DNA of 64,000 nucleotides, taken from assembly GCA_963588175.1 (NCBI GenBank), contig CAVAGP010000002.1:51515-115514 (forward strand), in the 5' to 3' direction. The DNA is from Faecalibacillus sp. Lineage in GTDB: Bacteria; Bacillota_I; Bacilli_A; RFN20; CAG-826. Positions within the stretch are counted from its first letter, which is position 1; each line of letters begins with the position of its first letter. Of the stretch, positions 14,690-55,260 are shown piece after piece. Both the position numbers and the translations under genes were made by a program. The notes under the pieces were generated by a model. It searched no databases, was not told the DNA's origin, and saw only the letters and a list, made by a program, of their open reading frames with translations.

Positions 14690-15496
14690 TTAAACTCCAC
14701 TTTTAATTGACGGTTTATACGATATCTCGATTGTACAAGGCAACGAACAAGTGAATTTTGTTTTTGTATCGCTGTATGTATTCTGTAGCGCAAAGAACTC
14801 AAAATTAAAATTGCTCGGAATATCATGAGACGAATTCGAAGATGAGATAATCATTTCCTTACCTTTGATTGTAATAACCTCGTTAGCTGTGCAGCCTTTA
14901 ATTATCGTATTGTATCCTGTAGTTTGATTTGCTATAGTTAAATCGCCAGCGCTTTTAATTGTGATTTTCATGTCGGGATAAGTACATCCAATTACATCAG
15001 AGACATCTTCCATCTCATTGACAGTAGACGAACTACTGATGATAAATGTTTTAGACACCGTAGCTCTGTGTGTGTGAGGGGAGTCAGTAGTCATAGTTAA
15101 ATCCAAACCGACAAGCCGTCCGCCGACACGATTCTTTTCAACATTAAAACTGGCATTATAATATGCAACTTCGCTTTGATTTGGAAAAGAAAAGCCGCAC
15201 TCTAAAAATTGTTCTCTATTTAACCAACGCATAATGCGTCTATATTCTAAATCTGTAATTTCTAAATTATCATTCTTGCAGGGATTTTTTACAATTGTAA
15301 ATGTCGCAGAGAGGGCCGTTTCATATTTCGTATCTGTTAACATCCAGTATTTCCCGGAATGAGTAGATACCGTGTCAAACGAAATAGTAGATTCGTCGCT
15401 CATAGTAAATGAACCATCAGATGAATCAATAGAACCAATAACAAAACCAAAATCACTTAGTAGTTGTCCGTCGTACATCATATCAAAAGTATCCAT
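14690..15496 (-). CDS. Distal tail protein (Dit-like)
   Basis: 268 aa. Lies in the conserved position between TMP and the Tal-like protein. No catalytic motif; call is by synteny and size. Confidence 0.55.
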   Translation of the reverse strand: MDTFDMMYDGQLLSDFGFVIGSIDSSDGSFTMSDESTISFDTVSTHSGKYWMLTDTKYETALSATFTIVKNPCKNDNLEITDLEYRRIMRWLNREQFLECGFSFPNQSEVAYYNASFNVEKNRVGGRLVGLDLTMTTDSPHTHRATVSKTFIISSSSTVNEMEDVSDVIGCTYPDMKITIKSAGDLTIANQTTGYNTIIKGCTANEVITIKGKEMIISSSNSSHDIPSNFNFEFFALQNTYSDTKTKFTCSLPCTIEISYKPSIKSGV

Positions 15497-15810
15497 TACG
15501 ACTGACCTCCCATAAAGTCTTTTCTAAATTGGTTCATATCTTTATTGTATTTTGCTTTTAATACAGCAAGTTCCTTGCTCATTTGCTCGTATTTCTTTTT
15601 AGCTTCTTTAGATAGTAAAATACCTTCTTCATAATCTGCTTTTAATCTGTTTACAATTTCCTCTACTCGTGATTCTTCACGGTCGTCCAAACGACGACGT
15701 ATCTCTCTATTCTCTTTTTCCAACTCTTGAATTCGCTCTTCAGCAAACACCAAAGACGAATTGAGCTGTTCTATTTTCGAGCGTAATGCTCGTTCTTTAA
15801 ATCCGGTCAT
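15496..15810 (-). CDS. Coiled-coil hypothetical protein
   Basis: 104 aa, strongly heptad-like and charged (EERIQELEKENREIRRRLDDREESRVEEIVNRLK). AAGGTGGA SD; stop overlaps the Dit start. Confidence 0.45.
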   Translation of the reverse strand: MTGFKERALRSKIEQLNSSLVFAEERIQELEKENREIRRRLDDREESRVEEIVNRLKADYEEGILLSKEAKKKYEQMSKELAVLKAKYNKDMNQFRKDFMGGQS

Positions 15811-15982: not shown

Positions 15983-16011
15983 TTGACTTTTTAACGAGTA
16001 TCCTTTAGAAT
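15983..16011 (+). promoter_or_regulatory. Promoter of type I toxin-like mRNA, copy A
   Basis: TTGACT (15983..15988), 17 nt, TAGAAT (16006..16011). Predicted +1 at G16019. Confidence 0.6.
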
Positions 16012-16162
16012 AACAATTGTAGAAACCAAACTGGTCTGTATCGAATTTCAGCCTTTATAGATCAGAACGGTTAAAAGACGGTTGCTTCTTATCTCGCACG
16101 AGCGGAATGGAGGCGTGTATATTGCTCCTCGCGGGAAATACTCTCGAAGGGAGGAAGATTAC

Positions 16163-16282
16163 ATAAACATTTTGAATATTCTCTTTGTAACGGTTATTAT
16201 GAATCTCGATAAGATTTGTAATGTAATCATGTTCGTGCTTTATATGCACGACCGATACCATGCTAAGAAGAATAAAGAGTGA
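16163..16282 (+). CDS. Small hydrophobic peptide (type I toxin candidate, copy A; start codon position is ATA)
   Basis: GGGAGG SD (16149..16154). The codon 8 nt downstream, where copy B has ATG, is ATA. Reading from there gives (M)NILNILFVTVIMNLDKICNVIMFVLYMHDRYHAKKNKE. In-frame TTG at 16172 and ATG at 16199 lack an SD. Confidence 0.35.
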   Translation: MNILNILFVTVIMNLDKICNVIMFVLYMHDRYHAKKNKE

Positions 16283-16382
16283 GCCGTCTGCTGCAACAGA
16301 ATGGCTCACTAAGTCGTATGAAAATTCACACTTCATACAATTTAAGTAAACTATGATTTGGTAGCAACCGTCTGGTTTCTAC
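16268..16382 (-). ncRNA. Antisense RNA (type I antitoxin candidate), copy A
   Basis: Promoter TTGACT (16417..16412), 17 nt, TATAAT (16394..16389), +1 about G16382. Terminator GUGAGCC...GGCUCAC (16309..16279) followed by UCUUUAUUCUUCUU. Fully complementary to the last 5 codons and the 3' UTR of the toxin mRNA. Confidence 0.55.
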
Positions 16383-16480
16383 ATTTTTATTATATATTTT
16401 TTCACCCAATAAGTCAAGTAAAAATTAGAAAAAGTGCGTACTTTTTGAAATAAAAGTACGCACTTTTCTTACATGTTTCG

Positions 16481-19400
16481 TCAGAAACGAATATTATTTT
16501 TACTCATTGACGACTTACCCGTCAATGGATTAACAAGCATCGACGTAAGCCATTTCTCCACACGCTTGTCCTTCTGCATCTCATTCATAAACTCTGAATA
16601 GTTCTGGACGTTCGGCAATGTGAATTCGATGTTGATAGGGGAGGAGATGTCGATCTGGCTGACGTTGCTCTGCAAGTCGACAGGGATAGATACCTTCGGC
16701 AGTTCTGCGACAGCATCCATCAGATCAGGAGCAAATGATACGAGCTTCTCAAAGTTTTGGTTCTGCTCTGGAGTAAGCACACGCTCTCCAGCCTTCAGTG
16801 TATTGATTGTAAAATCAGTATCGCCATTACGAGACAGGATCTTCTTTGAGTTGCCTACAACGCCGCCTGAAGCAAATCCAGTAATCTCAAACGGATCTTT
16901 ATCTGTCGGTCCGTTCTTCTCTGGATTCTTATTTGTTACAGCGTATGCAATCTTATCAGCCGCTGCGTTAATATCGCTGGACAGTGTTTTGATTCCGGTG
17001 ACAGCAGCGGACACGCTCGCAGAAATAGTTCCGTATTCAGAATCCGTTCCCCAAATCTTAGTCATTGCATCAGACATAGTATAACCAACAGAATCTGTAG
17101 CCTCTTTAATTGTTGATGATACATCGGCAGAATTAGCGTCAATGCTATTGATTAAATCATCTGCATTATCTCTGAGACTATCAATGATGTCGTCGAAGTG
17201 GTCACTCAATTCGTCCTCTAAATCACTAAGCAAGTCTTGTGCTGCGCTGATATACTGATCGTACTCCGCATCGGACAAGTCTTGCTGCGCATTCATTAAG
17301 TTTTGATTTGCTTGCTGAATACGTTGTTTTGCTTCTTCAGAGTCGTCGTACTGATATGCTTGCAATTGTTTCTGATAAGTGGTGATGTCCTTTGTGATGT
17401 CCTTGATATTTTGCTGGTAATCATAAATATCTTTTTGTGCATTTAACACATCAGAATATTTAGAAATCAATTTATCAAGCGCATCGAGTTGAGCATCGTA
17501 ACCATCCTGAACAAGATCAATCAAAGATTCTTTCTCGTCTTGGGCTGCGATGATTGCATCCTGTTGCGCTTCAACAAGCTCTTGTCTGCGGTCAAGATAA
17601 TCTTTATTTAAGCTATCGTCAGCAAATTGTTCGTCTAATTCTTTAATTGCTTCTGCATAATCCTTAGCTTGCTGAGTATAAGTCTGATAATTCTGGACAT
17701 GCAAAGCCTTGACAGCCTTGCCGTATTCCGTATCATTGCCAGTGTCTTTGTCTTGCAAGTCTTTATAAGACAACAGATCAATTAGAAAATCAGTTTCACT
17801 CGTCAGGTTTGAAATACGATCTTGTAATTCGTCGAAGCGATCCCAATTTAACTGATTAATAGATTGTTGATATTCTGCAACCGCAGCTTCACCCTCAATT
17901 AATGAAACAGTTAAATCATTAATAGCATCCAGTGCATCATAGTATTCGTCACTACCAACCGTTAAGTCGGAGAGGGAAGCCTGTAATGCATTTAATTCCT
18001 GACGCATTGATTCATTCTGCGCTAATTGAGCCTTTTGTTTTGCAGTGTAATACTTTGCAGAATCGCCATAACCAAGTGCTTGATTTTTAGATTGCTGTGC
18101 ATCAATAATAGATGCTTCATTATCATATTGCTGTTGCTGACGTTCGTAGCTCTCCTGAATATTCTGAAAGGCTTGATAAGCAAGAGCTTCTTTCTCTGCT
18201 TTGAACGACGCTTCATCAATTTTTTTCTGGGCCTCTGCTTGCAGTTTAGCCTGATAATATTGATGGTATTGCAAACATGCATTGTAGAACGATCTCCAAA
18301 CATAACCTTTTGAGTTATATTCAGCGAGCTGAGAGATCATATCATCAGTAATGTCTTCTCCGGAAGCCGCACGGCGTTTGCATTCCTGTACTAATGCTTC
18401 TACTTTTTTACGAGTAGCAGCACTAGCCGAGTTAATTGCTTTACCATACGCAGTACTCTTTGCAATTTTTTTAGCAGCAGAATTTACGCCAGAAGCCATC
18501 TCTGCAATTTCAGCATCGTCGTTGCTCAACATTGTGTCATAAAGACTAGATGCTTGCTTGAGTAGTTTATTCTTTTCCTCTAAGGTTGTAGCAACATCAG
18601 CTTGAGATTCTAATAAATCAATCTGGTCATTTGCTTCGTCATCCATTGCATCATAAATGTCTTGGATGTTTGAAATAATATCAGCATTGTTTTCAGCTTT
18701 TGCAACGTCGCGAGCAAGCTTTGCTTCGTCAAGTGCTTGCCGCTCGGCGTTGTATTTAATAATTTTAGCTGCGAGTTTGTTCGCATTCTTGGCAGAAGTT
18801 TTACCAGTTGTCTTCTTAGCATAATTTTCAATTACACTTAAATCTGAACTAGACACTTCTTTGCCGGACTTAATCGCAGCTTGAGCTGATTTAACTGCCT
18901 TCTTATATTTCTTATATTCTGACTTAGATGTACCTTTATGACGCTTTGCTTTTGATTGTTGCTTTGCAGCATTCTCAGCAGAATTTTGTGCTCTACCATA
19001 ATCCTTACGAGTCTCTTCGACGCGCGTCTTATACGCATCATTCTGCTTTTCAAGATTATCGTTTGCGTAACGCAACTGAGCAGCCTTTGCCGCAGCAGTA
19101 TAATTCTGTGTAGATGTATTGATGTCATCCAGAGAGTCGATAACATCTAATTTCGCCTGCATCTGTGCTTCATGCAATTCCTCAAGAGCATCTACGTAAT
19201 CAAGTACTTTATCCTTCAGCTCTTGAATTGCATCCGCAGCATCTAAAGATTTATCGTAGAATTCCTTATAGTCTTTAATGACCTCTTGCATTCTGTCGCC
19301 GTAGGACTTAATGTTAAGAGAACCGTCTTTAACTTGCTTACGAATTGCTTTTGCTTGCTTATTGTTGATAAGACCTTTGCTTACTGCACGATTAAGTACA

Positions 19401-22400
19401 GAATCTGCTTTGTCTTTATATCGACCTTGAACGGTAGTCTCTCTGCCAATCTGTCCGATTGTATAAGAGATGCCTTTACGATATAAATTCTCAGAACGTT
19501 GCCAACGTTGCTGATTCATTGCTGATTCAGCTTTTGTAATTACGTTGTCTATTTTACGTTCTACACGGTCTAAACGAATCTCAATCCAGTCGAAGAACTT
19601 ACCAAACCACTCTTGAAAGTTTGATAAGACTTTATCTTCTCCAGAACCAGAAGCAAACGACATACCTCCGACAGTACCGTTAGCGTGAGATGCGCCGATG
19701 AATTTGCCGTAAGAAGATGCTTTGCCAGAGTTTAAAAGGTCACGAGTCTGTGCTGCATTAAAGACAATATCGTCTTTTTGCAGATCTGCAAATCCGGGCT
19801 TGCCTCCGTTATGAATAAACCAACGACCTTTTCTGGAAATAATCTCCGGGCCGACCTCATTGACGAGAGCACGTCCGCTCTTACCGACGCTCCAGTCCCC
19901 GCTTGCTTTTGCTGGTCCGCCAATTTTTGTTGAACTTTCAGAAAATGCAGTTCCAGTAGCAGGACTAGTACCGTCGCCACCTATAAAACGTTTTACGTAG
20001 TTTACGATAGTCGTCATAGGAGAAGGAGCTTCTTGACTACCCTTGGTGTAATTAACCTCAGTATTCTTTGGGTCCGGCGTTTGTTGCAAACCTAGATTAT
20101 AATCTACTTTTGTATCTTTTGGATCAGGATTAATTTGGTTTCCTTTAGTATAATCTACCGGGGTGGTTTTGCGAGAAGGGCTTTCCTGAGATCCTTTAAT
20201 GTAATCCATTAAGGCATTCATAGCGTCAGGATTGTCCTGATTAGCTTTTATATAACTCAGTAAAGCATTCATAGCCACTGGATCATCTTGATGCTCGATG
20301 ACATAATTCATCAATGCTTCTTGATCTTCAGGATCTTCTTGGCTTTGAACAGCATAATCGAGCAAAGCTTGTTCTTCTTCAGGAAGTTCTTGGCTAGCTA
20401 TTTCGTAATTAACTTTGACAGTTTCATCTGTTTCGGAAGTTTTTTTATTACTTTGTCTACAACCACTAGAAGGATCATCTTTAGAGGTTTTAGCCTTGTA
20501 CTTTTTTGTGCCCTCTTCAAAAGAATCATCAGAAACATCGTCTTTATCTTTGTTTTGACGTTTACGTTTATTCTTTGAATACTTTCGCTTAGAAGTGTCG
20601 CCGCCAAGTTTCTTAATATAATTGTCCGCGTCTTCACTTAATGATATGAGTTCTGCGAAAAGACCGTCTTTCTTAGCTTCTTTTTTCCATTGAGCAACAG
20701 ATTTACCACTCTTCTTAGCAGCCGCAAAACTATCTTGCACCGCAAGCTCTGCTTCTTGAATCTTGCGTTTATATTGCTGAATATCTGTTATCTGGTCATC
20801 AGATAAAGTATTAATATTCTTTCCCATAAAATCGCTAAGATTTTCAGCAACGTTGCGAGAATTAACATAAGAATCATTAACCCAGCTCTTATACTTACCA
20901 TTCTTAGTTTTGAATGAGTTGTGATCTCCGCTTTCCATCGTCGAGAGATCTCTCTCATTGGTAGAGATATATTCCGCAAGAGTTTCGTGGGAATCATTAC
21001 CATTGTCAATAAGGTTTTTTAATCTAACCCTCTCTGCGCGAATTTGTGCTTCGTCTAATTCGGCTTTAATCTTGACTGCAATTTCCGGATCGAACTTTGA
21101 AAGGTCTCCATCAAGACCATCAAGATACTTTTCAAACTCATCAATATCATTCGACAAAGCGTCTCTAGTATCAGAGTCTTCGATGCCATCTCTTGCGGTT
21201 TTCAATTTATCCAAATTAGAAGATGCTTCATCATAAGCTTTTGCTACACTCTGAATGTTTTTAATTTTGAAACTGCCGTACTTGGTGATGTCATAATCGC
21301 CGAGACGACCCATAATAGCTTCAACAGAGCGGACCGAGATGCCGAGCTGATCAGCAACTTCTGCGGTATTTTTAAACTCTTTACCAGAGGAAGCTAAATC
21401 GCTTACAAAGTTATTTATACCAGACTTGGTGTACTCACCATCGTCGTTGGTTGTGAAATATCTCTGAAGTTTTTCATAGTTATCAGCAAAGTCACGCTTG
21501 TATTTTTTACCGTCAGGATCAATGAATTTAGCAATGGTCTTGAAGTCGTCTGTGCCAACAAGACCTTTGTCATACAAATCCTTTCCTGATTTCAGATAGT
21601 TACCAAGGTTCTCAAAGTCAGCACCTTCATTTGCTGATTCAGCGGCTTTTGCAATGCCTTCTAAGGTGCCATCTACTTCTTTGGCTTTTTTCTGAGCTTT
21701 AGTAGCAGACTCAGATAAATCATCAAAATACCGATTAAGATTCTCTACATTTTCAACACCAAGATCATCTAATGAAATACCAAGAGCGGCAACTACATCA
21801 GAAGCTTTCTTGCCGCTCTCAGCCATCTTGTCTAATATTGTACTTTGCAACTGTGAACGTGAATCCGTGCCGTTATTAAAGAAGCTTTGTAAAGTTTTTA
21901 GATCTTTCTGAAGAGGAGTGGCATTAGATGTATCGCTTTCATATTTAAGAAGAGCAGCATTCGCTGCATCAAATGCTTTTTGGTAATCATCATTCCAGTA
22001 AGTTGAACCAATGCCCTTAGCAAGTTCATCTCTCGCTGTCTGAATGTCGGCAGCTTCTGTTGCGGCTTCAGCTTTTAAATCAGAAAGTTTTTGCTTCTGA
22101 TCGGAAATCCGTTTGTCTAAGTCATCAGTGTTTTCGCCTTTGTCTTGGAGCTTCTGCCTTTCGTTTTCCAACTTCGTAAGATCTTTTTCTGCTAACTTCA
22201 TCTTTTTGAGATTAGCAGTCAGATCTTCAATAACATCTCTACGACCTGAGAATGATCCGCCATTAGCACCAGTAATCTTTTCACCGGAGATTGCTGCACT
22301 TTCATTATGATAAACCTTTGAGTCATCCGTTAAAAGCTCATAATTCTCGTCAACAGTATCTTTTAAATCTGCTTTTGCTTGAGCTTCTAATAATGTCTTC

Positions 22401-23140
22401 TTTCTCTCAAGTTCAGCATTTTGTTGCTTTAACGTTTGGAGTTCAGCCTCATCAGTCATACTAAGACGACCGTTTGCAGATAACTTTTGCAATTCTTCTA
22501 TACGAGATTGCGTAGTTGATAACTCATCATTCACAGAACTCAAATCAGATTGCGTGCTTGCATACGTAGACGCAGCGTCTTGAGCCGCCTGTTTGTTGTT
22601 GTCATACTCATGTAGTTTATCCGAAATAGCACCAATAGCAATTCCAATTGCAGCCATTGCAGCCATCTGCGGTAAGACAGAGACTAAGGTGGCTTTTAAT
22701 CCAGATAAGACAGTTCCAAAGGTGCTAAAAGATGTAGATACTTTTCCAGAAGAAACATTTTGAAATTGCTTTTCAGCTTTCGCAAGTTCCTTCGAGGCTT
22801 GGATTCGGTTTTGTCGTGCCGCATTATATTTCTCAGTAGCCTTAGCTTGTTCTTCAATGGAGGACGTAGGAGATTGAAGAATGTTACGTAAATTATTTTC
22901 GGCACTAGTCAAATCCTTGGCTGCCTTAGCGCTCTGGCTCCTTGCTCCATCAAGATTAGTCTGCGCTTTGGTTAAAGCATCTTGAACGATAAGTTGATTC
23001 TTTTGTGCATCTGTTAAAGAACTGCTTTCAACCACAACTTTCTTTTGTGAGTCTGAAAGTCCATCCAAACTTTTTCGGACGATATCAATATTTTTCTCGC
23101 CTTTGATGCTTTTTATTGCTTCTCCAGTTGTTTTTAGTGA
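16481..23140 (-). CDS. Tape measure protein, exon 4 (C-terminal 2219 codons)
   Basis: 2220-aa ORF-track ORF that begins only with an in-frame TTG, with no SD and no ATG for about 155 codons. Long coiled-coil, Ala/Lys/Gln-rich sequence with a hydrophobic segment (VLPQMAAMAAIGIAIGAI), typical of TMPs. The in-frame join to exon 3 is proposed at 30574|23140. Confidence 0.7.
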   Translation of the reverse strand, partial: SLKTTGEAIKSIKGEKNIDIVRKSLDGLSDSQKKVVVESSSLTDAQKNQLIVQDALTKAQTNLDGARSQSAKAAKDLTSAENNLRNILQSPTSSIEEQAKATEKYNAARQNRIQASKELAKAEKQFQNVSSGKVSTSFSTFGTVLSGLKATLVSVLPQMAAMAAIGIAIGAISDKLHEYDNNKQAAQDAASTYASTQSDLSSVNDELSTTQSRIEELQKLSANGRLSMTDEAELQTLKQQNAELERKKTLLEAQAKADLKDTVDENYELLTDDSKVYHNESAAISGEKITGANGGSFSGRRDVIEDLTANLKKMKLAEKDLTKLENERQKLQDKGENTDDLDKRISDQKQKLSDLKAEAATEAADIQTARDELAKGIGSTYWNDDYQKAFDAANAALLKYESDTSNATPLQKDLKTLQSFFNNGTDSRSQLQSTILDKMAESGKKASDVVAALGISLDDLGVENVENLNRYFDDLSESATKAQKKAKEVDGTLEGIAKAAESANEGADFENLGNYLKSGKDLYDKGLVGTDDFKTIAKFIDPDGKKYKRDFADNYEKLQRYFTTNDDGEYTKSGINNFVSDLASSGKEFKNTAEVADQLGISVRSVEAIMGRLGDYDITKYGSFKIKNIQSVAKAYDEASSNLDKLKTARDGIEDSDTRDALSNDIDEFEKYLDGLDGDLSKFDPEIAVKIKAELDEAQIRAERVRLKNLIDNGNDSHETLAEYISTNERDLSTMESGDHNSFKTKNGKYKSWVNDSYVNSRNVAENLSDFMGKNINTLSDDQITDIQQYKRKIQEAELAVQDSFAAAKKSGKSVAQWKKEAKKDGLFAELISLSEDADNYIKKLGGDTSKRKYSKNKRKRQNKDKDDVSDDSFEEGTKKYKAKTSKDDPSSGCRQSNKKTSETDETVKVNYEIASQELPEEEQALLDYAVQSQEDPEDQEALMNYVIEHQDDPVAMNALLSYIKANQDNPDAMNALMDYIKGSQESPSRKTTPVDYTKGNQINPDPKDTKVDYNLGLQQTPDPKNTEVNYTKGSQEAPSPMTTIVNYVKRFIGGDGTSPATGTAFSESSTKIGGPAKASGDWSVGKSGRALVNEVGPEIISRKGRWFIHNGGKPGFADLQKDDIVFNAAQTRDLLNSGKASSYGKFIGASHANGTVGGMSFASGSGEDKVLSNFQEWFGKFFDWIEIRLDRVERKIDNVITKAESAMNQQRWQRSENLYRKGISYTIGQIGRETTVQGRYKDKADSVLNRAVSKGLINNKQAKAIRKQVKDGSLNIKSYGDRMQEVIKDYKEFYDKSLDAADAIQELKDKVLDYVDALEELHEAQMQAKLDVIDSLDDINTSTQNYTAAAKAAQLRYANDNLEKQNDAYKTRVEETRKDYGRAQNSAENAAKQQSKAKRHKGTSKSEYKKYKKAVKSAQAAIKSGKEVSSSDLSVIENYAKKTTGKTSAKNANKLAAKIIKYNAERQALDEAKLARDVAKAENNADIISNIQDIYDAMDDEANDQIDLLESQADVATTLEEKNKLLKQASSLYDTMLSNDDAEIAEMASGVNSAAKKIAKSTAYGKAINSASAATRKKVEALVQECKRRAASGEDITDDMISQLAEYNSKGYVWRSFYNACLQYHQYYQAKLQAEAQKKIDEASFKAEKEALAYQAFQNIQESYERQQQQYDNEASIIDAQQSKNQALGYGDSAKYYTAKQKAQLAQNESMRQELNALQASLSDLTVGSDEYYDALDAINDLTVSLIEGEAAVAEYQQSINQLNWDRFDELQDRISNLTSETDFLIDLLSYKDLQDKDTGNDTEYGKAVKALHVQNYQTYTQQAKDYAEAIKELDEQFADDSLNKDYLDRRQELVEAQQDAIIAAQDEKESLIDLVQDGYDAQLDALDKLISKYSDVLNAQKDIYDYQQNIKDITKDITTYQKQLQAYQYDDSEEAKQRIQQANQNLMNAQQDLSDAEYDQYISAAQDLLSDLEDELSDHFDDIIDSLRDNADDLINSIDANSADVSSTIKEATDSVGYTMSDAMTKIWGTDSEYGTISASVSAAVTGIKTLSSDINAAADKIAYAVTNKNPEKNGPTDKDPFEITGFASGGVVGNSKKILSRNGDTDFTINTLKAGERVLTPEQNQNFEKLVSFAPDLMDAVAELPKVSIPVDLQSNVSQIDISSPINIEFTLPNVQNYSEFMNEMQKDKRVEKWLTSMLVNPLTGKSSMSKNNIRF

Positions 23141-23156
23141 CAAAATGTGATATATT
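23128..23156 (+). promoter_or_regulatory. Candidate promoter of zinc-ribbon gene (straddles the TMP exon 4 boundary)
   Basis: TTGTTT (23128..23133), 17 nt, TATATT (23151..23156) with an upstream TG (extended -10). Confidence 0.4.
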
Positions 23157-28465: not shown

Positions 28466-28497
28466 CAAAATATAAAAATAGCGGGGAAATCCCCCGC
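28466..28497 (-). terminator. Intrinsic terminator (minus strand)
   Basis: GCGGGGG-auuu-CCCCGC followed by UAUUUUUAUAUUUUG on the minus strand. Confidence 0.6.
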
Positions 28498-28531
28498 CGT
28501 TCGGTGGACTAGGGTCTTACGACCAGCCCAA

Positions 28532-29602: not shown

Positions 29603-29631
29603 TTGACAAGGAAAATCCAATCTGTTATTAT
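29603..29631 (+). promoter_or_regulatory. Promoter of type I toxin-like mRNA, copy B
   Basis: TTGACA (29603..29608), 17 nt, TATTAT (29626..29631). Predicted +1 at G29638. Confidence 0.6.
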
Positions 29632-29772
29632 CGAAGAGTGGAAGCCACCGACCCGACTTGGATTGGGGGGGTGGAACGGTTCCGAAGACGGTTGCCTGTC
29701 ATCTCGCAAAGCGCGGAATGGAGGCTTGCATATAGCTCTTTGTGGGAAATATTTCCGAAGGAGGACGAACAC

Positions 29773-29871
29773 ATGATTACTACCCTGAGTATCACCGGAA
29801 ACATTTCCAGCATTCTCGGTTTCGCATTCGCGATCTTCGTGTTTACATACCAGATAAAGAAAAAGAAGTGA
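29773..29871 (+). CDS. 32-aa hydrophobic peptide with Lys4 tail (type I toxin candidate, copy B)
   Basis: AAGGAGG SD (29759..29765), 7 nt, then ATG. MITTLSITGNISSILGFAFAIFVFTYQIKKKK has a single TM-like helix and a cationic C-terminus. Confidence 0.55.
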   Translation: MITTLSITGNISSILGFAFAIFVFTYQIKKKK

Positions 29872-29972
29872 ACTGTCCGCCACAATAGACAGCTTCACAG
29901 GATTTATGAAGTTACCAGCTTTATAAATCAAAAATAAAAATCACAAATCTGTAGCAACCGTCTGGTTTCCAC
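29855..29972 (-). ncRNA. Antisense RNA (type I antitoxin candidate), copy B
   Basis: Promoter TTGACT (30007..30002), 17 nt, TATAAT (29984..29979), +1 about G29972. Hairpin GUGAA(G)CUGUC...GACAGUUCAC (29898..29868) followed by UUCUUUUUCUUUAU. Overlaps the toxin stop and KKKK codons. Confidence 0.55.
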
Positions 29973-30060
29973 ACTTTTATTATAAACTTCTTATTAACAA
30001 AAGTCAATATGTCCCCACACTTTGAAACAAAAAGTTTTTATAAAAGATTGAATTTATTTG

Positions 30061-55054: not shown

Positions 55055-55260
55055 ATTCCTGCCACTCAAAATGTGTTTAAACATACTCAAACACATCGAG
55101 AAATTGAAGTCCTTACGGATACTTCTCACTGCTTCAATGTGTATGCTTTGGCGATTGCAAATAATGCGCTACTCACAAGTTCTTGTACACTCCGCAGTCG
55201 TTAATTCCCGAAATAGCCTTCGGTACATACTTACGTTTGCTTGATTATGCAATCTCGTAA
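55055..55260 (-). ncRNA. Candidate omega/reRNA of TnpB (3' end of element)
   Basis: Hairpins CCGAA-ggcuau-UUCGG and GAAGU-auccguaagg-ACUUC lie downstream of the tnpB stop. Placement is typical for the TnpB guide RNA scaffold. Boundaries are not determined. Confidence 0.35.

Follow-up and report, generated by a model that had tools for sequence, protein, structure and literature searches.

A probable type I toxin–antitoxin-like cassette with an apparent AUA start codon beside a phage tape-measure gene, and its relatives in gut Clostridia

The DNA analysed here, referred to throughout as the window, is a stretch of 64,000 nucleotides from Faecalibacillus sp. (assembly GCA_963588175.1, contig CAVAGP010000002.1, positions 51,515 to 115,514). 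On its plus strand a cassette that we call copy A, laid out like a type I toxin–antitoxin module, fills a 670-nt gap between a phage tape-measure open reading frame (ORF) and the next tail genes. A second cassette, copy B, is located at 29603-30007, and the two are the only copies in the whole assembly. A preliminary description of the window had assigned to copy A two convergent promoters, a helix closing the ends of the transcript, a GACGGUUGC/GCAACCGUC helix and an antisense terminator lying over the toxin stop codon, and each of these elements was recovered at the place given for it. The features of copy A, in window coordinates, are as follows.

15983-16011, plus strand: predicted promoter of the toxin mRNA, TTGACT-17-TAGAAT, with 10 of 12 consensus matches in a promoter scan.
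16019-16392, plus strand: predicted toxin mRNA of about 370 nt, with a fold of -116 to -121 kcal/mol.
16019-16027, plus strand: 5' arm of helix P1, GUAGAAACC, pairing with 16374-16382 in the minimum-free-energy (MFE) fold and in the RNAalifold consensus.
16031-16065, plus strand: 5' hairpin CUGGUCUGUA / UAUAGAUCAG of 10 bp, from the MFE fold and the family alignment.
16076-16086, plus strand: 5' arm of helix P2, AGACGGUUGCU, complementary to AGCAACCGUCU at 16363-16373 (MFE fold).
16105-16172, plus strand: conserved leader hairpin enclosing the ribosome-binding site, from the MFE pair list.
16149-16155, plus strand: Shine–Dalgarno (SD) sequence GGGAGGA, read from the sequence.
16163-16282, plus strand: peptide ORF of 39 codons, from ATA at 16163 to TGA at 16280-16282, (M)NILNILFVTVIMNLDKICNVIMFVLYMHDRYHAKKNKE.
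16310-16278, minus strand: antisense terminator hairpin, followed by UCUUUAUUCUUCUU at 16277-16264; it covers the TGA at 16280-16282 (antisense-strand fold).
16268-16382, minus strand: predicted antisense (antitoxin) RNA of about 115 nt, bracketed by its promoter and terminator.
16361-16395, plus strand: mRNA 3' tail, comprising the P2 3' arm (16363-16373), the P1 3' arm (16374-16382) and a U-tract.
16417-16389, minus strand: predicted antisense promoter, TTGACT-17-TATAAT, with 11 of 12 matches in a promoter scan.

The toxin mRNA is predicted to begin at G16019, 7 nt past the -10 box; a TATAAT box stands in front of GTGGAAACC in the aligned family members, at the spacing seen in copy A. The predicted mRNA is homologous end to end with cassettes in other contigs, and its fold has z = -6.7 against shuffled sequences (z = -4.1 for copy B). 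Two long-range helices are both present in the MFE fold. In the closing helix, P1, GUAGAAACC(A) at 16019-16028 is complementary to (U)GGUUUCUAC at 16373-16382, while the core of P2 is formed by GACGGUUGC at 16077-16085 and its complement GCAACCGUC at 16364-16372. The 3' tail could alternatively fold into a local terminator hairpin, GUAGCAACC-GUCU-GGUUUCUAC. The 5' hairpin is the counterpart of the CACCGUCUAC...GUAGACGGUG hairpin of the family, with another sequence that still pairs.

In the MFE fold the leader hairpin pairs CUCCU at 16125-16129 with GGGAG of the SD at 16149-16153, and GUGUA at 16115-16119 with UACAU at 16160-16164, the latter taking in the first two start-codon bases. The SD of copy A is about 80% paired in the ensemble, and duplexes between the leader and the start region average -8.5 kcal/mol across the family. 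The leader block GCGGAAUGGAGGC (16102-16114 in the window) is almost invariant in the family and holds a second GGAGG, which might draw the single anti-SD (GCUCCUC / GCCCUC) away from the real SD. A conserved upstream ORF starting at the AUG in GGAAUGGAGG was considered and dropped, since its frame and stop vary across the family.

On the opposite strand the 5' end of the predicted antisense RNA, GUAGAAACCAGACGGUUGCUAC, duplicates the 5' end and the P2 arm of the mRNA itself. The 123 nt that follow the antisense promoter contain three hairpins (z = -3.6), the last of which is the terminator; its helix is kept in the family by compensatory changes (RNAalifold, alignment columns 329-362). A 93-codon minus-strand ORF at 16055-16336 was rejected as a gene, as this frame is not conserved and the antisense frames of the family range from 40 to 123 codons.

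Copy A has many relatives. We collected about 175 homologous cassettes of common layout from gut viral contigs, metagenome-assembled genomes (MAGs) of Clostridia and gut metagenomes. Two loose sequence patterns yielded about 79 true homologues in IMG/VR viral contigs, a third gave at least 29 in species-representative genomes, nearly all of them gut or rumen MAGs, and a fourth gave at least 105 in gut metagenome contigs; exact 3'-tail and long-leader patterns had found no match in the viral contigs. The titles of the MAG loci name Oscillospiraceae, Lachnospiraceae, Ruminococcus, Monoglobus, Ruminiclostridium, Eubacteriales and Clostridia. Four signatures define this GUGGAAACC...GGUUUCCAC family: the conserved leader AGACGGUUGCC...GCGGAAUGGAGGC...GGGAAAU; a stop codon inside AAGUGAGCCGUCUG; a 3' tail, GUGGCAACCGUCU-GGUUUCCAC, with pairing partners in the leader and at the 5' end; and a start codon AUA, AUU or AUC (AUH) 7-9 nt after the SD. 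Copy A has all four blocks, aligns over its full length, keeps P1 and P2 intact through compensatory changes and has ATA 8 nt after the SD.

The distribution is patchy. In the taxonomic family of one Oscillospiraceae MAG, nine of 201 species genomes carry a cassette detectable by BLAST, some in two or three copies, and in the family to which the window's own assembly belongs a single genome of 200 gave a match, a marginal one (E = 0.009). This pattern suggests that the cassette travels with mobile elements and not with the lineage. A blastn comparison of copy A, copy B and a typical member with 50,697 deposited phage genomes returned no match, so that we can name no example from a cultured phage. 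Rfam has no family on the cassette even at E <= 10, and neither Pfam nor NCBIfam matched the peptides of copy A, copy B or five further family members.

The preliminary description had taken base changes between the two copies as support for a real terminal helix. These differences were confirmed, position 3 being A-U in copy A and G-C in copy B and position 7 A-U and G.U, respectively, and a wider comparison bears out the helix itself. In an alignment of 49 diverse members (alignment A2), 99.2% of the P1 and P2 cells are paired and both sides have changed at six pairs (14 cells), four of them in P1. None of 500 shuffles reached this level of covariation, and pairing fell to 21-51% when the partner was moved by one to three columns. 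The covariation of P1 is unbiased, as P1 was part of no search pattern used on viral contigs or genomes. P2 is 99.8% paired in the 49 sequences, and copy A has a compensatory U-A where the family has C-G. RNAalifold applied to the same members returned P1, P2, the 5' hairpin, the leader helices and the stop-codon hairpin, with double changes at 13 pairs.

The local 3' hairpin, GUGGCAACC-GUCU-GGUUUCCAC followed by a U-tract, is 95.4% paired in the family and is probably the terminator of the mRNA. Its uncompensated mismatches fall exactly where the 5' end compensates in P1. Both conformers of the 3' tail are plausible, and the alignment points to the clearer selection on P1. In copy A a G-to-A change at position 3 is matched three times, in the 5' end, in the 5' arm of the hairpin and in the 3' arm, so that both conformers are kept. 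A further helix, in which the start region would pair with a segment upstream of the 3' arm of P2, was not retained: its mean energies were -7.7 for cognate, -6.7 for non-cognate and -4.8 for shuffled partners, a tendency and not an established feature, and it is weak in copies A and B.

Copy A has ATA at 16163, 8 nt after GGAGG, where the aligned position of copy B has ATG, as the preliminary description had noted; it had offered silencing, weak translation or use of an in-frame TTG at 16172 as explanations. Start codons were assigned conservatively, any canonical codon near any SD-like motif being preferred. Of 73 unique ORFs, 42 have ATA at the position 7-9 nt past the SD, 11 have ATT, three ATC, 15 ATG, one GTG and one TTG, and about five of the 15 ATG starts are artefacts of the leader. 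AUH codons thus occupy the position in at least 77% of the family, and the ATG of copy B belongs to the minority. A second check, anchored on conserved Leu-Gln codons and therefore not presupposing the start, gave ATA 18, ATT 3, ATC 1, ATG 2, GTG 1 and ACG 4 in 29 unique contexts. Every one of these codons is AUG or differs from it by one base, as fits an initiation codon and not an ordinary isoleucine. The four ACG contexts are at L218, L354, L252 and L296, again 8 nt after the SD.

Other properties of the start region agree with this assignment. In many members the start is preceded by an in-frame TGA at a distance of one or two codons, and for 25 of the 56 AUH ORFs the first 40% of the frame contains neither ATG nor GTG nor TTG. 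One peptide subfamily toggles between ATA, ATT, ATC, ATG and GTG; in the subfamily of copy B, ATG is commoner. The extended SD GGAGGUGAU is found in many members, and its spacing to the start is fixed at 7-9 nt. With ATA in the family majority, the codon is the normal state for copy A, and the suggestion of a silenced copy finds no support. The TTG at 16172 is unlikely to be used: its distance from the SD is 17 nt, and relatives have nothing equivalent. Of the options raised, weak translation is the one that the comparison favours, as a design of the family and not a defect, and AUA is most likely a deliberately weak start codon. We consider that copy A is probably translated from AUA; initiation at a downstream TTG or ATG is unlikely, and a complete lack of translation somewhat more so.

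Precedents for such codons exist. Initiation at AUA, AUC and AUU in E. coli reaches 1-2% of the AUG level (10.1101/063800). Ribosome profiling has mapped AUA or AUU starts in infC, ccpN, cvfC1 and citZ of Staphylococcus aureus, which depend on extended SDs and reach about 10-30% of AUG (PMC13009471). Conserved starts in the Firmicutes genes infC (AUA/AUU), ccpN (AUA) and cvfC1 (AUU) resemble those of the cassette in lying 7-9 nt after an extended SD, with initiation at roughly 10-30% of AUG and subject to discrimination by initiation factor 3 (IF3); these are, however, housekeeping or regulatory genes and not toxins (PMC13009471). Type I toxins are restrained by SD sequestration, over-perfect SDs and weak start codons, and the only Gram-positive weak-start examples in the reviews are the GUG codons of yonT and fst (PMC6562991, PMC3834814, PMC8167048). 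Our literature search found no type I toxin family described with predominant AUA or AUU starts.

The coding frame leaves its own trace. In the best-sampled peptide subfamily, represented by 13 unique ORFs of 29 codons, variable sites are distributed 13/13/21 over the three codon positions, and 32% of codon differences are synonymous in the proposed frame compared with 15% and 18% in the other two. The family peptides diverge strongly and vary in length from 27 to 39 residues (median 31 codons), and they keep a hydrophobic core and a ...D(R/K)-KKK end, with the TGA embedded in AAGUGAGCCGUCUG. In copy A the best 19-residue hydropathy window has a mean of 1.84. Its C-terminal NV..VLY.HDR and lysine tail are shared with the peptides of L033, L050 and L167; in this C-terminal half DKICNVIMFVLYMHDR resembles DTVVNVMALVLYICDR of L033 and SLVLYVHDRKKK of L050. 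The ORF of copy A thus fits the type I pattern of a short (<60 aa) hydrophobic peptide that has its own ribosome-binding site, the SD lying 8 nt upstream.

The predicted antisense RNA is likewise a feature of the family. An opposite-strand promoter with at least nine of 12 matches is present in 140 of the 154 unique cassettes with enough flanking sequence (91%). In 80 of these, copy A among them, 6-7 nt separate the end of the -10 box from the base that faces the final nucleotide of P1, a placement that would make the antisense RNA begin with the same 10-20 nt as the mRNA (GUAGAAACCA...). In about 50 cassettes an extra GC-rich hairpin shifts the antisense promoter outward by 42-45 nt. This hairpin, between the P1 3' arm and the antisense promoter, is seen in L091, L099, L104, L181, L151, L186, L214 and their relatives, a subset that forms a second architectural variant of the family. 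The predicted antisense RNA is complementary to the last codons and the 3' untranslated region (UTR), and it would start at the outer edge of P1; judged by sequence, the cassette appears to encode in cis an antisense RNA that overlaps the toxin mRNA.

The two copies in the window are appreciably diverged. Identity between A and B is 77% in the leader (78% in a second comparison), below the 85% or so that had been estimated, and 65% in the 3' UTR, about 52% in the ORF and 47% in the 5' hairpin region. On these sequences they are old paralogues and not recent duplicates. Copy A is closer to cassettes in other phages (L033, L032, L022 and L036; 68% over 333 nt). The peptides had been called unrelated; this holds for the pair, at 52% nucleotide identity of the ORFs, and fails for the family, in which both belong to a single continuum. 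Copy B combines the minority ATG with a start-region/leader duplex of only -0.7 kcal/mol, against the family mean of -8.5, and on this model may be the less tightly locked of the two.

We put at about 75% the probability that copy A is complete and kept by selection, and belongs to a widespread type I toxin–antitoxin-like family of gut Clostridia and their phages, undescribed in the literature and databases searched. The preliminary description of copy A as a second copy of the module is supported, and the copy appears complete and not decayed.

Several observations weigh against this conclusion. When the 3' tail was blocked in silico the accessibility of the SD was unchanged, at about 0.2 unpaired in both states, in 18 members, and we dropped an antisense-induced change in SD accessibility, none being predicted. 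The copy A peptide, at 39 aa, is the longest in the family and has Asp-Lys amid its hydrophobic stretch. The near-invariance of P2 is partly by construction, because its arms were fixed in some of the search patterns. Conservation of UACAUA may in part reflect pairing with GUGUAU of the leader; such pairing would tolerate AUG equally well. Finally, the 39-aa peptide had no homologue among 1.84 billion protein representatives, and a word-indexed protein search with a 66-aa extended frame found none either. Short length and non-AUG starts hide genes of this kind, so protein homologues could escape notice.

The surroundings of copy A comprise the following features.

16481-23143, minus strand: tape-measure ORF.
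16468-16429, minus strand: terminator, a perfect 17-bp hairpin directly after the tape-measure stop codon.
15961-15895, minus strand: match to the full model (positions 1-64) of the Rfam DUF3800-VIII motif, 39.6 bits, E = 2.5e-6.
15861-15838, minus strand: terminator.
15496-15810: coiled-coil ORF of 104 aa, a tail gene.
14690-15496: Dit-like DUF6558 protein, a tail gene.

The cassette had been described as followed by two minus-strand terminators. That at 15861-15838 is indeed one, while 15961-15895 is a near-threshold DUF3800-VIII RNA motif, 0.6 bits under the curated gathering score of 40.2. Expression of the tail genes downstream of the terminator at 16429-16468 would need read-through or a promoter of their own. 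The same phage carries a DUF3800-XI RNA at 28483-28530 (62.9 bits), and a RAGATH-18 RNA is present at 55126-55198 on the minus strand (66.6 bits, above the gathering score).

The position beside a tape-measure gene recurs elsewhere. In a second phage lineage of 11 loci (L022, L032, L033, L036, L253, L259, L271, L304, L307, L318 and L320) the cassette lies a few hundred nucleotides beyond a PhageMin_Tail (tape-measure) ORF and is convergent with it. The tape-measure protein of this lineage has no relation to that of the window by tblastn, and these 11 are the only ones of the 175 loci with a tape-measure gene near the cassette. In L032 the PhageMin_Tail ORF is a fragment of 276 aa only, which hints at a split tape-measure gene, as in the window. 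The tape-measure, coiled-coil, Dit and Tal proteins of the window gave no tblastn match in any homologous locus, and synteny of the cassette with the window's tail genes was accordingly dropped.

This setting bears on what the peptide does. Small hydrophobic peptides with lysine tails are also known as holin-like or accessory phage proteins, and a cassette placed among tail genes beside a tape-measure gene, in two phage lineages, might be expressed to make an antisense-regulated small membrane protein, acting in lysis timing in the manner of a holin, in superinfection exclusion or in membrane modulation, and not a toxin held in check by an antitoxin. We think this unlikely: the tape-measure neighbour is confined to the 11 loci, bacterial MAGs also carry the cassette, in several copies, and an SD hairpin combined with a near-cognate start and a convergent antisense RNA is the signature of a harmful product (PMC6562991, PMC8167048). 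It is far less probable that copy A arose by duplication of copy B and is decaying or silenced, a change from ATG to ATA having switched the toxin off while the remainder drifts. Such decay would account for the ATG at the aligned position of copy B, for a peptide of atypical length with charged residues in mid-helix and for a pairing between the start and 3' regions that is weaker than in most relatives; it conflicts with ATA as the majority start codon of the family, with two promoters at 10-11 of 12 matches, with an open ORF that ends in the conserved GUGAGCCGUCUG block and with helices maintained by compensatory changes, among them the three-way change at position 3. Nor are A and B recent duplicates, at 77% identity in the leader and about 52% in the ORF, copy A being closer to the L033/L032/L022/L036 cassettes.

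A structured pair of non-coding RNAs, with an incidental and untranslated ORF that for this reason lacks AUG, would explain why nucleotide conservation is far stronger in the leader, the stop-region hairpin and the 3' tail than in the ORF, and UACAUA can indeed pair with GUGUAU of the leader. We judge this to be very improbable, since the proposed frame has the most third-position variation and the largest synonymous share, and the divergent peptides still keep their length (median 31 codons), a hydrophobic core and a basic tail. A strong SD, often GGAGGUGAU, is moreover fixed 7-9 nt from AUG or a one-base neighbour of it, and the long frame of the opposite strand, at 40-123 codons, is not conserved. 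We give almost no credence to A-to-I editing, by which AUA would become AUG-like and toxin synthesis conditional on the editing. TadA editing of hokB is a precedent, and as an inosine in third position reads as G the idea is a formal possibility, to which the sequences lend no support. Of the 56 non-AUG starts 14 are AUU or AUC, and there are four ACG in addition, none of which could be edited to AUG; the process therefore cannot be general. TadA also needs the UACG loop context of a tRNA-Arg, unlike the start of copy A, whose A is followed by A or C in ...CAUAA....

Characterized type I systems offer several points of comparison. Among the closest in design is bsrG/SR4 (and bsrE/SR5) of the B. 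subtilis prophages SPbeta and P6, in which a prophage-borne gene likewise encodes a small hydrophobic peptide (PMC3834814, PMC6562991). The ends of the bsrG mRNA pair in a long P1, its SD is in a local double-stranded region and the convergent antisense RNA overlaps its 3' end by about 120 nt, so that binding must open P1 (PMC3834814). A P1-type 5'-3' helix, an SD in a local helix and a 3'-overlapping antisense RNA, the architecture of TxpA/BsrG and BsrE/BsrH, are all predicted for the cassette. Similarity of sequence is, however, lacking, with no Pfam, NCBIfam or Rfam match to the TxpA/BsrG or BsrE/BsrH peptides or to the RatA/SR4/SR5 RNAs. In the cassette family the partners of the 3' tail are two 5' segments that lie apart, the start is mostly AUA, AUU or AUC where bsrG uses AUG, no helix extension at the SD like that caused by SR4 is predicted when the tail is blocked, and the hosts are gut Clostridia and not Bacillus.

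Resemblance extends to txpA/RatA of the skin element and yonT/SR6 of SPbeta, which have a 3'-overlapping antisense RNA, decay that depends on RNase III and very strong, extended SDs. As proposed for the cassette, a weaker start (GUG) limits translation in yonT and in fst of E. faecalis (PMC6562991). The cassette differs from txpA and yonT in the non-canonical AUH start, a trait of the whole family, and no homology was detected. In hok/sok of plasmid R1 and AapA1/IsoA1 of Helicobacter a 5'-3' interaction also locks the full-length toxin mRNA in an inert state (PMC8167048). Their antisense RNAs, in contrast, target the 5' region or the ribosome-binding site and activation requires 3' processing, whereas the predicted antisense RNA of the cassette lies over the 3' tail. 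A mok-like overlapping frame is absent, the leader mini-ORF is not conserved, the peptides are unrelated and no HOK_GEF match was found, which sets the cassette apart from hok/sok. As regards Fst/Ldr (par), there is no match to the Fst family, the complementarity is a single continuous 3' overlap, and apart from the P1/P2 mimicry no direct repeats are shared with the 5' region. Our analysis suggests that the cassette works like bsrG/SR4 and txpA/RatA and is a member of no described family.

Sequence and comparison establish the promoters, the covarying helices, the coding frame, the position of the AUH start and the antisense terminator; in the model that follows, transcripts, toxicity, decay and biological role are inferred. 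A sigma-A-type promoter would drive transcription of about 370 nt of mRNA, encoding a hydrophobic peptide of 39 residues with a lysine tail. The last 20 nt or so of this mRNA would pair with two 5' segments, the very 5' end (P1) and AGACGGUUGC (P2), an arrangement that probably shields both ends and makes the mRNA long-lived. The conserved leader hairpin would bury the SD and the first bases of the start codon, and the near-cognate AUA would allow a small fraction of AUG-level initiation. The convergent promoter would make an antisense RNA of about 115 nt, which, by analogy with bsrG/SR4 and txpA/RatA, would compete with the 5' segments of the mRNA for its 3' tail and displace them, leaving the duplex exposed to decay of the RNase III type. 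The unchanged accessibility of the SD suggests that the antisense RNA acts mainly through such decay, as RatA does on txpA, and on this modelling a translational switch like that of SR4 is the less likely mode. Should the labile antisense RNA be lost, with the element itself or through transcriptional shut-off, the stable closed mRNA would go on to yield a harmful membrane peptide.

A more speculative role, which we think improbable, is that the AUH start serves as a sensor and not just as a throttle. AUA, AUU and AUC, and the occasional ACG, are codons that IF3 rejects, so that synthesis of the toxin from a stable closed mRNA would rise when start-codon proofreading fails or IF3 becomes limiting, the antisense RNA being a second, independent lock. 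Host shut-off by an invading phage or translation stress could then be the trigger, and the cassette would be a suicide or exclusion module triggered by translation fidelity.

Type I toxin–antitoxin systems are hard to find, and almost all of the studied examples come from a few model bacteria. The cassette family is common in uncultured Clostridia of the human and animal gut and in their phages, and is in no RNA or protein family library. Gene callers miss its peptide because it is tiny and starts at AUA, AUU or AUC, which makes the family an annotation blind spot. For the phage in the window, two diverged, intact cassettes, one with ATA and one with ATG, beside and inside the tape-measure gene region, add to an unusually dense toxin–antitoxin cargo. 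What appears from the sequences to be new, and distinctive of this unpublished type I-like family, is the family-wide use of near-cognate AUH starts, which would extend a known weak-start repertoire consisting only of the GUG codons of yonT and fst. The family would thus offer a natural case, replicated many times over, in which codons policed by IF3 hold a dangerous protein at trace level.

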